The position numbers and the translations under genes are program-made. Positions 1 through 17,362 of a DNA stretch of 64,000 nt are shown in pieces. The stretch's first letter is position 1. Each line of letters opens with the position of its first letter. The stretch comes from Minisyncoccota bacterium (GTDB lineage: Bacteria; Patescibacteriota; Minisyncoccia; Minisyncoccales; Minisyncoccaceae): assembly GCA_041663645.1 (NCBI GenBank), contig JBAYMH010000002.1:16515-80514 (forward strand). The letters are read 5' to 3'. The notes under the pieces are model-generated. The model was given only the letters and a program-made list of their open reading frames with translations, was not told the DNA's origin and did not search any database.

Positions 1-3000
1 TTTTCTCCTTCAATCACAAAACCTTCTGATAAATTGAAATCTATTTTTGTATCTCCCTCCCAATATAAATAGTTATACTCTTTTCCATCATCTTTATTTA
101 TAAGCTTTCCAGTGGGGTAGGCGACTACGTCCCAACCTTTATCTTTGTCATATTTGGGAATATTTTCAGTAAATTCTCCATCAAAAACAACTTTCACATT
201 TGCCTCAATCTTCTTTTCCGGATAAAGATATACCACTGGTTTTCCACAATGAATCTCGTTGACTAAAGTCACTACAATATCTCCCTTAAAATCAACACAG
301 GGCCTTTCTTCTTTTAAGTCAGAATCCCATGCATTGCATTCTAGTAATTCAAATCCTTCTGGAACTACGTAAATTTTGCTTTTTGGATTTCCTGAATTAG
401 GCCCCCCGCACATATAGTCATATTGATTACACCAGAATAAATATATTCCTTTCGTCCCAATTTGCAGATCCCATTCATCTGTTACCCAAAACTCTAAATG
501 ATTGTTGCCCGTATTTAAAAGATCTACGATCATTGGATAACCTGTAAATACTCTCGAAGATCCTCCTTGTGATTCTTTACTACCCCATTCTTTTGACTTT
601 CCATTAGTAGTATTTACTATTTTAAGTATGTCATCAACATACACCTCCGTTAATGATGTTGGTGATCCAGAAAGTTGAATTGGCGTAGATCCATCCCATC
701 GAAAATCAATTTCTCCAGCTAGTACTGTTTGGTATCTAGGCTTTGTCTGTTGCATAAATGGCTTAGCCGCTTCTTGGCTGCTATTTTTTTTACATTCCCC
801 AACGCAACTCCTGTTTTTAACAATCATTTTAATAGTACCGCCATATTGTCTTGGTGAATTATCATCAATCACATTTTCTGCCAAAATTTCTTTATTTTCA
901 GGAATAAAATCTCCGCCATCAAAATAGTCATAACGCTCAATCGTATTACAATATGAGTATCCATCCGTTGAATAGCTTGCACAACTAGAGCCGCCTTCCC
1001 CAGAACAATGACTACAGTCACATCCTCCCTCTATTCTGTCGTTTGCTAATACATCCAAGGCATTCATAGCTGCATCAACCTGCTCAATTGTGCGATTAAG
1101 ATTTCTTATCATCTGCTTAGCATAAATTTTGGTATGATAAGAAAGTTGTCCTATCGGAATCAAAGAGGGGAGAATATTACCTCTTTGCTGAATAATCTCT
1201 GTGTCTATTGCAGTGTTTTCTGCATATTGGGTAAAGTCTATAAATCCTTTCTGAAAATAATATGGCATTTGATCTCTTCCAGTATAGTAAGGGTCTACCT
1301 TTACCTTTGGATCTTCTAAAACATAAAAAGTTAAAGGGTCTCCATTGGTAGCCATTTCTTCTCCCGTGTAATATTCTCGATTGGGATTGCTTATATCACT
1401 AGAATTTAAATATGAGATACCTCCTTTGGTGTATAGACTATCATTCCAAGCGACCATTCTTTTTTTATCCATAGTCAAGCTTCTAGCGGTTATTTTGCCA
1501 GAACCACCCCCAATGCATTTTTTATCTATATCAAAGAACTTAATATTATCTCCCTGAAGAGTTGCTAAGTCTCCTCTAGAACATAAAGAAGCCTCTCTCT
1601 CATCGGCCGTTAAATCGTTATATCCGTTACCTACTATTTTCATACTGCCATCAACATGAAGATTGCTTATTGCCTCGCCTGTCCTTATTCTTATTTTTCT
1701 ATTATTCTTCTGTGCATCTGTGTACATGGCACCTATTCCATTGGCCCCCCAGTCTTCGTTAAAATCTTGTATCCTATCCGCGTCATCTTCATATACGTTT
1801 TTTTTATTCAAATTAACTGGATTGTCATAAAGAGAGCAGTTAAATTTTCTACGATAAGTAACCGTATCATAAGCGTAAGGGAAAGATAAGCTTGCCTGGC
1901 TAAATGAATATTTTTCTACTGCTTCCTGTTGAAGGTTTTGTATTTCCGCTCTTGAATATAATTCTAATCTTTTATCAGACATTAAAAATTTCTCTGTCTT
2001 TTCTAAGTCGGCTAATCTTTTTTCATAATAAATCCTAAATGACATTAACCTTTCTCTAACTGCCATGAGCGATGTTGTTTCAGCATTTCCCTTAACTTCT
2101 GGATCTCCTGCTTCTGGAAAAGCCTCGCAGTCAAAAACAATTGGAGGGGTTCCACTACCAACACCAGACGTTGGATAAGAAACAGCAGCTTCTTGAGGAA
2201 TGCATCCGACTTGGCGTTGTGCATAATCTTTCACTATATTCCCATAAACAATATAGTTAATAAATTTTCTCATGCAGTCCATAGACCTTCTTGTTGTGCA
2301 TGGGTCAAAAAGCATATAAGGGTTTTTGTCATTATAAATGTTATTATAAGAACCTTGACAACAGTCATTCCTTCCTCTTGTGCTACCACAGCACACACAA
2401 TTTGGCTGACAACAAGTTCCGCAATTAGAACAAGTACAACCGTCACGAATATACTTTTTCAATTTATTAATAATCCCTTCCGTTCCTTCAATGTTGCAAT
2501 CTGAAGTTTCAATCGCTTTTGTGCATTTAGTTGAAACATTAGGATATTTTGCCCAATTACAAATAGTTGTGTTGGGATCGTCCCAATCGTGGTAATTAGT
2601 TCCCAAAATAGTCTTTCCTGAATCGCCCAATATGCCATGAGCGGGAGTGCCGATATCTCCTATGGCTTTGGGAGAGTCAGCATCAGTATATCCAGCAGTG
2701 CCACATCTATACTTATCTCCATTTAAATAAAGTATTTTATGTTCGGCTGCTTTTAATAATTCATTTATACAAATTGAAAAATCAAGCCCCTGATATTCAT
2801 CGAGCTCAGTTATGTATCCATCTCCATTTTTATCTATGGCGTTACCGTATTCATTGTATAAATAACACCTCTCTTCTCCACTTTTATCGCCAACGTCTAG
2901 AGAAGAATAATTATATGCTTGGCTGTTAGCAGTAGAAACCGCATTTAAGATCGATTCTATTTGGGCTCCTATTGGAACCTCTACGTAAGAAACATTTGGA

Positions 3001-3422
3001 TTATCTGGGTTTATCTTATTAAGCGAATTAGTAAAACCTATATTTTCAAAGCTTGGTAACTTTATCTCTAGTATCTGAGGGTTAATAGCGGCAAGCATTG
3101 CATAAGATGAAAGCAATACGCCTAAGCCCAAAGAAATACTTCCAAATCTTTCTTTGGCTTCGACTACCTTTCCAGCATTTCCGCCAGCGGTAAGAATCTT
3201 CACTCCCTGAACAATCAATGCCCCCACTGCGATAAAAGCTCCACCAGCTATACATACATTGTAGGCATAAACAAAAAAAGTTTGATCGCCAGCAGCAACC
3301 ATTCCTGCAACAGTCGGAAAATCTCCCGAAAGAGAGACTGCTGTTACTGCAAAAACAATGTCATAAAAAAACAATAGGGGAGAAGAAAATATAATTATAG
3401 CAAGTACTTTTTTATAATTCAC
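1..3422 (-). CDS. Giant secreted/cell-surface protein, partial (C-terminus beyond the left edge): N-terminal TrbC/VirB2-type T4SS pilin-like domain fused to a >1000-aa cysteine-rich ectodomain
   Basis: Not in the supplied ORF track. My own minus-strand translation stays open from GTG at 3422 (in-frame TAA at 3434-3432 just upstream) to position 1, about 1140 codons. It starts VNYKKVLAIIIFSSPLLFF (signal/TM). Two hydrophobic helices follow, around IVQGVKILTAGGNAGKVVEAKERFGSISLGLGVLL, a pattern typical of T4SS pilins. Cys clusters come next (CTCSNCGTCCQPNCVCCGSTRGRNDCC; GGCDCSHCSGEGGSSC). The only + strand ORFs here are short antisense ones. Confidence 0.8.
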   Translation of the reverse strand, partial: MNYKKVLAIIIFSSPLLFFYDIVFAVTAVSLSGDFPTVAGMVAAGDQTFFVYAYNVCIAGGAFIAVGALIVQGVKILTAGGNAGKVVEAKERFGSISLGLGVLLSSYAMLAAINPQILEIKLPSFENIGFTNSLNKINPDNPNVSYVEVPIGAQIESILNAVSTANSQAYNYSSLDVGDKSGEERCYLYNEYGNAIDKNGDGYITELDEYQGLDFSICINELLKAAEHKILYLNGDKYRCGTAGYTDADSPKAIGDIGTPAHGILGDSGKTILGTNYHDWDDPNTTICNWAKYPNVSTKCTKAIETSDCNIEGTEGIINKLKKYIRDGCTCSNCGTCCQPNCVCCGSTRGRNDCCQGSYNNIYNDKNPYMLFDPCTTRRSMDCMRKFINYIVYGNIVKDYAQRQVGCIPQEAAVSYPTSGVGSGTPPIVFDCEAFPEAGDPEVKGNAETTSLMAVRERLMSFRIYYEKRLADLEKTEKFLMSDKRLELYSRAEIQNLQQEAVEKYSFSQASLSFPYAYDTVTYRRKFNCSLYDNPVNLNKKNVYEDDADRIQDFNEDWGANGIGAMYTDAQKNNRKIRIRTGEAISNLHVDGSMKIVGNGYNDLTADEREASLCSRGDLATLQGDNIKFFDIDKKCIGGGSGKITARSLTMDKKRMVAWNDSLYTKGGISYLNSSDISNPNREYYTGEEMATNGDPLTFYVLEDPKVKVDPYYTGRDQMPYYFQKGFIDFTQYAENTAIDTEIIQQRGNILPSLIPIGQLSYHTKIYAKQMIRNLNRTIEQVDAAMNALDVLANDRIEGGCDCSHCSGEGGSSCASYSTDGYSYCNTIERYDYFDGGDFIPENKEILAENVIDDNSPRQYGGTIKMIVKNRSCVGECKKNSSQEAAKPFMQQTKPRYQTVLAGEIDFRWDGSTPIQLSGSPTSLTEVYVDDILKIVNTTNGKSKEWGSKESQGGSSRVFTGYPMIVDLLNTGNNHLEFWVTDEWDLQIGTKGIYLFWCNQYDYMCGGPNSGNPKSKIYVVPEGFELLECNAWDSDLKEERPCVDFKGDIVVTLVNEIHCGKPVVYLYPEKKIEANVKVVFDGEFTENIPKYDKDKGWDVVAYPTGKLINKDDGKEYNYLYWEGDTKIDFNLSEGFVIEGE

Positions 3423-17200: not shown

Positions 17201-17362
17201 GAATTTAGAAATGCGTTAAATGAACTTGGAGAAGATGGAGATGCCTTGAGTAAACTTTTGGAAGAAAAAATAAACGGAAACGATGATATTAAATATACGA
17301 GTTTTCCAGAAAAACACGGAATACAAGCAGCCGCAATAAGAATAGGAGTAGAAAAAATGTAA
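14210..17362 (+). CDS. Giant Glu/Lys-rich membrane protein with a central Gly-rich TM hairpin and C-terminal repeat modules
   Basis: 1050 aa. The acidic, Pro-rich N-terminal ~380 aa precede a TM region (VQVAVVGAVILGVSVTVPPVGGAAWLTHGLVTGFLPAEYGVGLIYTGIATGAGTLGASGVGSAIL). The C-terminal part is a coiled-coil-like ~570 aa with recurring SF(D/E)xLY ... (I/L/F)PE(x)(Y/H)GI motifs. Confidence 0.7.
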   Translation: MENFKASNENIETPLAGKKIDFDWEEIKKGILESKGLDQNTNQEKIEAIPVIEHKIEIPKIDEEDSLEEESMDRRSFSEIVDSQQVNEAKNEVEEMFSTFSGETEVPKEFLQKQENDAESWNRPSGTEIGFDEKEGKEEMFINPPAYFEIPKEPKLLESEDQEELINRPIENIRIEEVKALEGQEELKSSKSTEVPVDINITEKSPPPKPIPSKNEVVDTPEIINISKTSESPPIAEIPKNEIPKPIEKTEEEKLVEQLKERLEELKIQIEKKELEINNIVPGLLSKFGLSEKSKKKELLLKELEELEKEKSDIEKKLGITPSTKEKKIKTFREKFAEKVYDFIRGKKEETKISFEQLPPEKKILFTKFISLAKDRRVQVAVVGAVILGVSVTVPPVGGAAWLTHGLVTGFLPAEYGVGLIYTGIATGAGTLGASGVGSAILRKIIENRKKGGNREMLTEEEVDKVKSATEKEITEQKEKVRLLLKNANIAKEKYTESETLAKSGKPEDLENAVVAKKIFEDTFLLWGKEMYSLAEKTSKSPNEIITEMFVKKPETPEIKNIKRDLLQKLKDETDSAFSAKKTITNTDSVASKIGKITETSPELSLNEKLNLIKGSNSFDTLYSSLERLSEEGIDPEAIKNDVEHIREIIRTSSKERKEAEFMADCFTGDISEQDKKREFEPKISIPERYGINDKINYLLKKEILETKKEILPVEVALEVPETRIIPTKESKPEVLSTFEDLYERIKERPDKDQIIKKIESIRQLKKEGGGVNEMLTLFVTLPEEYKATVTDALKKDNLPEEGIRDFSKINSFDQLYKTGLTEDEKADIRLIRLGQKTPNILTQDLKKKVSELINRDTQVISEASDLSSLYKAIDIICRSSDTQNAFSSIKIRESIQNYLHPSPQYYDQKKTLEEIPEIYGIRKKVLELTKQEEETEKPLTKIAIEKNPEVLLENNIEKKSVPERIAKIVSTSEQPKKEGGEVDKLEKILTETSSVEEFRNALNELGEDGDALSKLLEEKINGNDDIKYTSFPEKHGIQAAAIRIGVEKM

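Follow-up and report, generated by a model that had tools for sequence, protein, structure and literature searches.

Patescibacteria possess a type IV secretion system (T4SS) without conjugation parts, on which epibiotic growth nevertheless depends in the sole species tested. That species is Southlakia epibionticum, in which Wang et al. in 2023 described an 'apparent T4SS' at SEML1_0006-0019 that is required for epibiotic growth; its pilin genes are essential, and coupling and relaxase proteins are not recognisable (PMC10633639). The system considered here lies at the left end of a 64,000-nucleotide stretch of DNA from a Minisyncoccota bacterium (contig JBAYMH010000002.1, positions 16,515 to 80,514; hereafter the window, meaning this whole stretch), where a gene cluster containing virB4 sits next to dnaA.

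A survey of 3,035 genomes by Quiñonero-Coronel et al. in 2025 places 2,425 VirB4 proteins in one Patescibacteria clade inside MPF_FATA (PMC12102498). Genes near virB4 in these organisms encode TrsD, PrgI/VirB3, VirB6 and PF18895 pilins, with 441 pilin arrays reported (PMC12102498). Relaxases are nearly absent and homologues of the type IV coupling protein (T4CP) are mostly distant from virB4; in Paceibacteria and Microgenomatia, virB4 is close to dnaA, dnaN, rnpA, ksgA and rpmH (PMC12102498). A 2025 review lists the Patescibacteria T4SS and proposes the pilus as a conduit, as well as uptake (PMC12857230), and a 2026 preprint reports a cultured parasite with tubular structures directed toward the host envelope, which are maybe T4SS pili, and with uptake of host RNA (bioRxiv 10.64898/2026.06.21.733656).

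Taken as a whole, the cluster in the window is probably an origin-side Patescibacteria T4SS, non-conjugative and descended from the conjugation machines of monoderm bacteria of the MPF_FATA (CD1110/CTn2-like) type. It shares with the described systems a VirB4 of FATA type, as judged by its family model, with adjacent TrsD, PrgI/VirB3, VirB6 and PF18895 pilin array, the lack of a relaxase and of a nearby T4CP, and a place beside dnaA, dnaN, rnpA and ksgA; the organism itself belongs to Paceibacteria, a class with reported dnaA linkage. The system is already described: published accounts cover the lack of a relaxase, TrsD, the pilin arrays and the closeness to dnaA (PMC10633639, PMC12102498). 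The locus differs from the described ones in that its pilin modules head proteins of 346-1249 amino acids (aa), with relatives of up to 2113 aa and some with peptidase domains, and in that the nearest cultured relative parasitises an archaeon, not a bacterium. What is new beyond the literature is the giant fusions of pilin and passenger, a protein family encoded directly upstream of PrgI, the association with an SPFH protein, the fast evolution of the surface parts and the link to a cultured parasite of archaea. Neither the size of the pilins nor passenger domains nor SPFH is discussed in the text of PMC12102498, and its table is without lengths; neither the SPFH protein nor the 140-aa family upstream of PrgI is mentioned in the main text of PMC12102498 or PMC10633639.

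The motor block and the VirB6-like protein

The left 17 kb of the window consists of 12 open reading frames (ORFs) in both orientations, and all of those that an earlier note on this DNA had named are present where it had placed them. Comparisons between species use 80 related loci, the best genome matches with one genome per species, most of which are named Paceibacterota, Nealsonbacteria, Parcubacteria or Patescibacteria. The parts that define the system, and the housekeeping genes that fix its position, are the following.

1..3422, minus strand: pilin1, a giant pilin-module protein of 1249 aa on the source contig, cut short by the left edge of the window
3902..6226, plus strand: probable VirB6/TrbL-like polytopic membrane protein, extended, 4 kb upstream of the motor block
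9969..11009, plus strand: conserved component upstream of PrgI, with a helical N-domain of ~105 aa, an acidic/Pro-rich insert of ~230 aa and a C-terminal motif
11020..11436, plus strand: PrgI/VirB3-like small membrane protein with a hydrophobic hairpin at aa 24-65, adjoining TrsD-VirB4
11524..12288, plus strand: TrsD-like protein of 254 aa, a detached VirB4 N-terminal domain as a gene of its own
12312..14093, plus strand: VirB4 core ATPase of CD1110 / MPF_FATA type, in which the first ~180 positions of the family profile are absent
17416..19195, minus strand: housekeeping block jag (KhpB-like)-yidC-rnpA-rpmH, right of the T4SS cluster, with jag at 17416-17895 and rpmH at 19052-19195; it fixes the chromosomal position of the cluster and is syntenic in 57-65 loci
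19586-20965, plus strand: dnaA, on the opposite strand to the jag block, with dnaN next at 21283

The identity of the VirB4 ATPase, as proposed in the earlier note, is secure. The protein scores 372.5 bits against the NCBIfam model conju_CD1110 (cut-off 325) and covers profile positions 182-733, with further matches to Pfam P-loop_TraG (E 1.2e-27) and CagE_TrbE_VirB (E 6e-5) and, in the PDB, to the C-domain of Thermoanaerobacter VirB4 (4AG5, E 4e-41). Walker A (AKSGSGKS, from the translation) and Walker B (IMIVDEA) are both intact. The protein encoded just upstream had been set down as unassignable, and profile matches now identify it as a TrsD-like VirB4 N-domain: VirB4_plasma positions 103-233 (E 5.6e-11), CD1110 positions 1-118 (E 6e-6), TrsD (E 1e-3), a precomputed annotation as PF26593 TraC-like, and an alignment of its orthologue profile with residues 24-146 of a full-length 797-aa plasmid VirB4 (hhalign E 2e-5). 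This ORF matches CD1110 positions 1-118 where the ATPase ORF covers 182-733, and the split is real: the TrsD-like protein and VirB4 are separate ORFs in 77 loci.

The small membrane protein ahead of this pair reaches 25.1 bits against PF12666, for which the cut-off is 27, while all 70 of its 70 syntenic orthologues match the family (best E 6.8e-10), so that the profile search upholds the PrgI/VirB3-like assignment, clearly on the strength of the family and weakly on that of the window copy. Of the 80 loci, 75-77 have the order PrgI-TrsD-VirB4, which the table of PMC12102498 also shows. PDB searches with the TrsD profile and the PrgI profile gave nothing usable.

PrgI, the TrsD-like protein and VirB4 form one co-oriented block with the product of ORF 9969-11009, operon calls being made from gene spacing and orientation only. 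This fourth member is always directly 5' of PrgI and is matched by tblastn in 48 of the 80 loci. The family that its N-domain defines comprises 781 clusters at 50% identity, whose members are mostly 130-160 aa and typically ~140 aa long and end in a motif D-x-Y-R-E-P-I-E. The C-terminal motif of the component can be written D-x-Y-[RK]-E-[PT]-P-I, and the window copy ends DPYKETPI, after the low-complexity insert of ~230 aa. In appearance this ending resembles a short docking peptide. Sequence and profile searches found no relative of the ORF or of the 140-aa family in Pfam or the PDB, and an AlphaFold model of the N-domain from the single sequence has a pLDDT of 53. This family and the SPFH protein described below are two candidates for parts so far missing from the monoderm T4SS.

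The best plasmid matches of VirB4 come from Firmicutes and Actinobacteria, which are monoderm, at 29-36% identity. The MPF_FATA machines of Firmicutes (CTn2/CD1110 type, such as Clostridium botulinum pCDC3875, with pGO1/pIP501 for TrsD/TraD) share with the window a CD1110-family VirB4, a PrgI-family protein directly 5' of the VirB4 module with VirB6 before it, and a monoderm envelope without VirB7/9/10. The MPF_FATA plasmid differs in having a VirD4-like CD1115, a MOBP relaxase, an SLT transglycosylase and a single 797-aa VirB4. In the window, by contrast, VirB4 is split, those three functions are missing nearby, and the set has VirB2-like pilin modules in addition and a VirB6 that is three times longer.

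The VirB6-like protein has an N-domain of ~345 aa with at least six hydrophobic helices, followed by a Gly-rich linker and a helical tail of ~430 aa, which is probably cytoplasmic. Its orthologues in 52 loci measure 550-920 aa, and the long tail is universal in the clade; extended forms of VirB6 are already known (PMC12857230). For the window copy, Pfam gives no match even at E<=10, and NCBIfam gives none. Among 51 orthologues, TrbL is matched by six and TrbL_4 by two, and no other Pfam family is matched. A profile of the 51 N-domains finds a sole PDB entry at E<=10, namely TrwI, the VirB6 of R388 (E 0.0012). An AlphaFold model (pLDDT 69) leads to the same protein, the top Foldseek targets being the TrwI chains 8rtd_L and 7o3v_F/J/G, with probabilities of 0.98-1.0, TM-scores of 0.44-0.52 (target-normalised) and E-values of only 0.065-0.14. 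The alignment of the profile with the Firmicute VirB6 CD1112 is not significant (hhalign E 0.38). Precomputed annotation places PF19590 on many of the homologues, a match that the present Pfam scans did not reproduce; PF19590 is presumably a TrbL-type family and is not used as evidence here. From sequence profile and structure model together, ORF 3902-6226 is a probable VirB6-like protein, in line with the earlier description of it as VirB6/TrbL-like with a ~430-aa extension; the profile support comes from the family more than from the window copy.

The inner-membrane module of Gram-negative VirB/Trw systems (VirB2-VirB3-VirB4-VirB6; R388 TrwI 7O3V/8RTD) consists of the same four types of part. 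The locus here differs from it in having no VirB5, VirB7-10, VirB8 or VirB11, in its huge pilin passengers and in the VirB6 tail of ~430 aa.

A conserved site beside the replication origin

The cluster had been placed next to the replication origin in the earlier note, and the jag-yidC-rnpA-rpmH block, dnaA-dnaN and two clusters of DnaA boxes bear this out. Perfect and near-perfect boxes flank dnaA at 19418-19526 and 20988-21206. The origin is placed by these boxes because the GC skew on the left side follows the gene strand and marks no sharp origin: right of ~21 kb the skew is uniform and strongly positive, and left of ~21 kb it is mixed and tracks gene orientation. GC content is ~29-37% across the window, and the cluster forms no compositional island.

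The 80 best VirB4 genome matches are assemblies of CPR type (candidate phyla radiation), a few of which carry other or generic labels, and their VirB4 proteins are 63-98% identical to that of the window. Identity is 98-94% in three groundwater-type metagenome-assembled genomes of Paceibacterota, 86% in Minisyncoccus archaeiphilus PMX.108, 78% in Ca. Microsyncoccus archaeolyticus and 63-70% in Nealsonbacteria. The gene order in M. archaeiphilus is the same, and the locus lies at the end of the chromosome record, beside the origin. Strain PMX.108 (NZ_AP038758.1) is a cultured obligate parasite of Methanospirillum hungatei (PMC12281837). Because this cultured organism has the cluster and parasitises an archaeon, the system is open to study against a proteinaceous host envelope.

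When every protein of the window is compared with the 80 loci by tblastn, the order pilin / small membrane protein / VirB6-like ... ORF9969-PrgI-TrsD-VirB4 / jag-yidC-rnpA / dnaA-dnaN is conserved. TrsD is present in 77 loci, PrgI in 75, the VirB6-like protein in 52, pilin in 50, ORF9969 in 48, SPFH in 17 and the small membrane protein in 13; position and order of the cluster are kept in ~50-77 of the 80 species. The co-occurrence across Patescibacteria that the earlier note had proposed to examine is seen in dozens of species, with the components accompanying VirB4 beside oriC. Distant Nealsonbacteria-like loci have the pilin-module genes 3' of virB4 and before jag, not upstream of the VirB6-like gene (L034, L037, L048-L052, L057, L062, L066, L070, L072, L079), and in L029, L074 and L076 the dnaA block or the entire housekeeping block has the opposite orientation with respect to virB4. 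In these loci the genes stay linked though their order is shuffled.

Rates of change differ between the parts of the cluster. The non-synonymous divergence (dN) from the related locus L003 is 0.051 for VirB4, 0.062 for PrgI and 0.103 for TrsD, next to 0.030 for dnaA and 0.105 for yidC, and it reaches 0.31-0.49 for pilin1, ORF9969, SPFH and the VirB6-like protein; ratios to the synonymous divergence (dS) are rough because dS is saturated. Against L001, VirB4, PrgI and dnaA are 97-98% identical, but identity falls to 76% in pilin1, 67% in ORF 9969, 51% in a 1050-aa protein, 47% in ORF 9311 and 34% in SPFH. The motor is under housekeeping-level constraint, and the membrane and surface parts turn over fast. 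Hypervariable segments in a conserved frame, as read from the sequences, suggest allele replacement or an arms race.

The conjugation parts are missing from the neighbourhood. No Pfam or NCBIfam match to a relaxase or a VirD4/TcpA-type coupling ATPase occurs in the 64 kb and a further 16.8 kb to the left, nor any suitable ORF with a Walker A motif. The earlier note had named the DNA immediately left of the window as the place where a relaxase, oriT and VirD4 would speak for an ordinary conjugative element; none of them turned up in the 16.8 kb there, and among its called genes neither a relaxase nor a T4CP domain is found. ORFs with a Walker A motif in the 22-64 kb part are TsaE, a 176-aa protein and ClpB only, not every small ORF there having been profile-scanned; no integrase was seen among the scanned ORFs, no search for att sites having been made. 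That note had also reported the lack of a coupling ATPase, a relaxase and a peptidoglycan hydrolase. The first two absences hold for ~80 kb around virB4. The third does not, as a LysM-LysM-Peptidase_M23 enzyme is encoded ~14 kb past the left edge; it could be a stand-in for the missing VirB1, or it may be a cell-wall housekeeping gene.

It is very improbable that the cluster is an integrative conjugative element, or the decaying remnant of one, sitting near the origin by chance. VirB4, PrgI, TrsD and VirB6 are all of conjugation-gene descent, and the closest relatives outside the CPR are on monoderm conjugative plasmids, but the same chromosomal position and order recur in ~50-77 of the 80 species and the motor genes are conserved like dnaA. 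The GC content of the cluster is like that of the rest of the window, its ORFs are intact, with Walker motifs retained, and neither relaxase, T4CP nor integrase was found in the ~80 kb. A conjugative element is rejected on the fixed synteny, the housekeeping-level conservation and the lack of these three functions in that interval: the cluster occupies a fixed chromosomal site beside oriC and, in dozens of species of Paceibacteria/Minisyncoccales, is passed on together with housekeeping genes. The idea of a minimal, non-conjugative T4SS-like apparatus of an epibiont, put forward in the earlier note, finds support in the same fixed site and housekeeping-like inheritance and in the lack of a nearby relaxase or T4CP.

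Pilin-module proteins and their possible role

The most unusual parts of the locus are the pilin-module proteins. The left flank was recovered as 16.8 kb of the 183-kb metagenome source contig (locus L084), and with pilin1 it reveals an array of five co-oriented pilin-module genes that runs left and diverges from the VirB6-like gene, encoding proteins of 1249, 966, 829, 975 and 346 aa. The features of this side are listed here.

L084:6210-16477 (2.4-13 kb left of window position 1): continuation of the array, with a 291-aa secreted Cys-rich protein and then four pilin-module genes
L084:16509-22490 (13-19 kb left of the window): ksgA, LysM-LysM-Peptidase_M23 (381 aa), a ComM/Mg-chelatase-like ATPase, a DksA/TraR-type zinc finger and a long coiled-coil protein
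3469..3852, minus strand: small membrane protein of 123-127 aa with ~2-3 hydrophobic helices, directly upstream of pilin1 and syntenic in 13 loci

Pilin1 combines a signal peptide with a two-helix, VirB2-like T4SS_pilin module (~aa 1-120) and a hypervariable ectodomain of ~1100 aa, with 36 Cys; the two helices are at aa 56-74 and 95-113, after a signal-like helix at 6-24. Aligned pilin modules share a signal peptide, E-x-x-Y-P and, on either side of a charged loop, two hydrophobic helices, with INP-x-L at the end. The window copy scores 13.6-16.7 bits against T4SS_pilin, where the cut-off is 26.6, and a single-sequence PDB search with it gave no match. PF18895 is matched by 42 of 53 aligned pilin N-termini (50 syntenic homologues, the window copy and two paralogues from the source contig; best E 6.3e-12), and through these orthologue matches, together with an E-value of 3e-49 against a pilin-module hidden Markov model (HMM) made for this analysis, the pilin-domain giant of the earlier note is confirmed. 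The same HMM matches five of the five array members (E 1e-29 to 1e-49). The fifth member passes the Pfam T4SS_pilin cut-off itself (28.1 bits), and the other four are supported through orthologues; the fourth (975 aa, L084:12509-15436) has a papain-family Peptidase_C1 domain at residues ~475-695 (E 2.7e-17), and the third, with two of its homologues, bears the NCBI label 'pilin'.

The large size is general. In a survey that applied the HMM locally to the fetched loci (65 sources: the window, the source contig and 63 related loci), each source has 1-3 pilin-module ORFs near virB4; a word-indexed profile search gave five proteins only, all PF18895. The 63 complete pilin-module ORFs from related loci have a median length of 535 aa, with 51 of at least 400 aa, three below 200 aa and the longest at 2113 aa, and conservation is limited to the first 120-230 residues. 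Among 68 pilin-module proteins surveyed with Pfam, the passenger is Peptidase_C39_2 in four, Peptidase_M23 in two, and Peptidase_C1, NosD/beta-helix, He_PIG and LTD in one each, the remaining ones having no family match. By its sequence, pilin1 (1249 aa) would be a pilin-anchored surface protein, outside the usual size of a major pilin (~70-130 aa).

The small membrane protein at 3469-3852 has no Pfam and no NCBIfam match. In two relatives (L025:684-4634 and L031:243-2996) it shares an uninterrupted frame with the pilin-module protein, which points to a functional link between the two.

These parts can be arranged into a working scheme. By analogy with Gram-negative VirB systems, a VirB4/TrsD motor anchored by VirB3 would pull pilin hairpins from the membrane and pass them to the VirB6-like platform, a step modelled on Agrobacterium- and R388-type systems and on the TrwI match. 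On this platform the pilin-module proteins would be built into a filament or spike at the surface, or displayed as one. Because the C-termini of VirB2-type pilins face outward, the passengers would lie on the surface or filament and be brought against the host envelope, and in this way domains that bind the host or attack its wall may reach the host cell. The peptidases among the passengers hint at a local attack on the wall, be it of protein or of peptidoglycan. The structure would serve as an attachment device and possibly as a conduit for host material, and the position beside oriC may provide stable inheritance and perhaps a high gene dose. Large fusion 'pilins', some with peptidase domains, offer a concrete, testable idea of the surface cargo of the machine.

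Several points weigh against this account of the locus. On their own, the window copies of PrgI, the pilin module and the VirB6-like protein are each below the Pfam gathering thresholds, and no VirB8-, VirB1- or VirB5-like protein is assignable with Pfam or NCBIfam among ORFs 6230, 8456, 9311 and 14210. The description as coupling-protein-less holds for the ~80 kb around virB4 only, and a T4CP may be encoded elsewhere in the genome, VirD4 homologues in Patescibacteria being usually far from virB4 (PMC12102498). The HMM found no small pilin gene (~100 aa) in 80 kb around virB4, so that a conventional pilus shaft is without an obvious subunit, and a helical filament built solely of subunits with passengers of 200-1100 aa is sterically doubtful. 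The extraction of pilins by VirB4 is known from Agrobacterium-type systems, and in monoderms it would hold by analogy. For cells that grow slowly, a gain in gene dosage from lying near the origin is speculative.

Machines without a relaxase, and some without a coupling protein, are known from Bordetella Ptl, Brucella VirB, archaeal Ced and Helicobacter ComB, in which a VirB4 machine can move cargo besides a conjugative plasmid. The homology of the present locus to them is confined to the VirB4 core, and their specific channel and pilus parts are missing here. They provide the models for two other accounts, which differ from the proposed scheme in what is moved.

It is possible, if doubtful, that the machine works inward, as a ComB/Ced-like channel that takes up DNA, RNA, nucleotides or other cytoplasmic material from the host, with the pilin-module proteins piercing or holding the host envelope. 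This would change the main cargo and its direction and leave the identity of the parts as it is. The VirB4 core does match the archaeal import ATPases CedB (E 3.5e-11) and CedD (E 6.6e-6), but weakly and far under their cut-offs, and these matches reflect generic similarity of the ATPase core. The absence of a substrate-recruiting T4CP nearby would suit import, and protease/peptidase passengers fit a breach of the host wall; against this, Pfam and NCBIfam scans recognise no nucleic-acid-binding part in the cluster. Patescibacteria generally are without nucleotide synthesis and a cultured member takes up host RNA, but the preprint that describes this RNA feeding itself leaves the mechanism of uptake unresolved (bioRxiv 10.64898/2026.06.21.733656). 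The idea of uptake is also raised in the 2025 review, where, on the other hand, loss of comEC in Southlakia ends competence and not viability (PMC12857230), so that DNA uptake for transformation is not the essential role.

Export of proteins independent of a T4CP, in which pilin-module proteins or effectors would be released or injected into the host as in Bordetella Ptl or Brucella VirB, with no filament, is unlikely. The passengers are enzyme-like and hypervariable, resembling polymorphic effectors, effector systems without a T4CP exist (PMC12102498), and Wang et al. suggest that the Southlakia system 'may instead export proteins' (PMC10633639). The passengers read here, however, come with a membrane hairpin and Sec signal peptides and would therefore reach the surface without a cytoplasmic T4SS route, and neither a C-terminal signal of the effector type nor a chaperone was seen among them. 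Display and attachment are ranked first and an import conduit second.

A wider and tentative form of the display scheme would hold for the Minisyncoccales/Paceibacteria branch, to which cultured parasites of methanogenic archaea belong: the VirB2-like module may be a general N-terminal 'handle' with which the origin-proximal T4SS mounts changing, giant and fast-evolving ectodomains on the surface or pilus tip. Among the ectodomains would be peptidases (papain-like, C39-like and M23) and beta-helix proteins, the whole would be an organ of display and attack that recognises and opens the host envelope, and host range would be set by the passenger repertoire. At least two conserved parts of the machine would also have escaped recognition: the SPFH protein and the family of 140-aa proteins encoded upstream of PrgI.

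Accessory genes and other features of the window

Between and beyond the defining parts of the cluster lie more variable ORFs.

6230..6766, plus strand: acidic 178-aa protein without hydrophobic helices, found in the closest relatives only
6814..8271, minus strand: SPFH/stomatin-family membrane protein with two N-terminal hydrophobic helices, within the cluster in 17 of the 80 loci
8456..9190, minus strand: 244-aa protein with ~4 hydrophobic helices and a soluble C-terminal part, lineage-specific (one locus), in the variable middle of the cluster
9311..9892, minus strand: polytopic membrane protein of 186-193 aa with ~4 helices, lineage-specific (two loci)
14210..17362, plus strand: acidic, coiled-coil-like 1050-aa protein with a central hydrophobic region at ~aa 380-450

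The SPFH protein reaches 20.2 bits against Band_7 (cut-off 23.6, E 6.5e-4), and a profile of its orthologues matches PH stomatin (E 1.3e-17) as well as QmcA and HflK, the stomatin match bearing out the family given in the earlier note. The 1050-aa ORF is a variable insert between VirB4 and jag that is present only in the five closest relatives, M. archaeiphilus among them; a single-sequence PDB search with its product gave no match.

The gap between the divergent small membrane protein/pilin unit and the VirB6-like gene is 49 bp long and holds promoter-like sites back to back (window 3834-3900): on the minus strand TTTACA-18-TATAAT with TG (11/12 matches) and on the plus strand TATAAT. Overall, promoter-like sites are not enriched in the window (72, against 64.7 in shuffled sequence). 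Terminator-like hairpins are found after VirB4 at 14098-14116 and at 17375-17401. In an Rfam scan of the 64 kb at the gathering score, tRNA-Ser GGA (30623-30710) is the sole tRNA gene, and no other family is detected.

Further to the right, a 274-aa protein (42896-43720) has a helix-turn-helix at its C-terminus and, at its N-terminus, a weak bAvd-like match (E 0.0096, far under the cut-off); bAvd is a part of diversity-generating retroelements. The two ORFs that come after it are 172 and 245 aa long. A 136-aa ORF at 50864-51274, whose sequence includes RFKAICVDEQEYLDYLIFYIHFNPL, may be akin to REP-associated / IS200-like tyrosine transposases. Four very large secreted proteins of 793-1360 aa are encoded at 32997-35378, 45998-50005, 52050-55454 and 58235-62317. 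Their domains are PG_binding_1, LTD and fibronectin-III, with mostly nothing else recognisable, and they may be further surface or host-interaction proteins.

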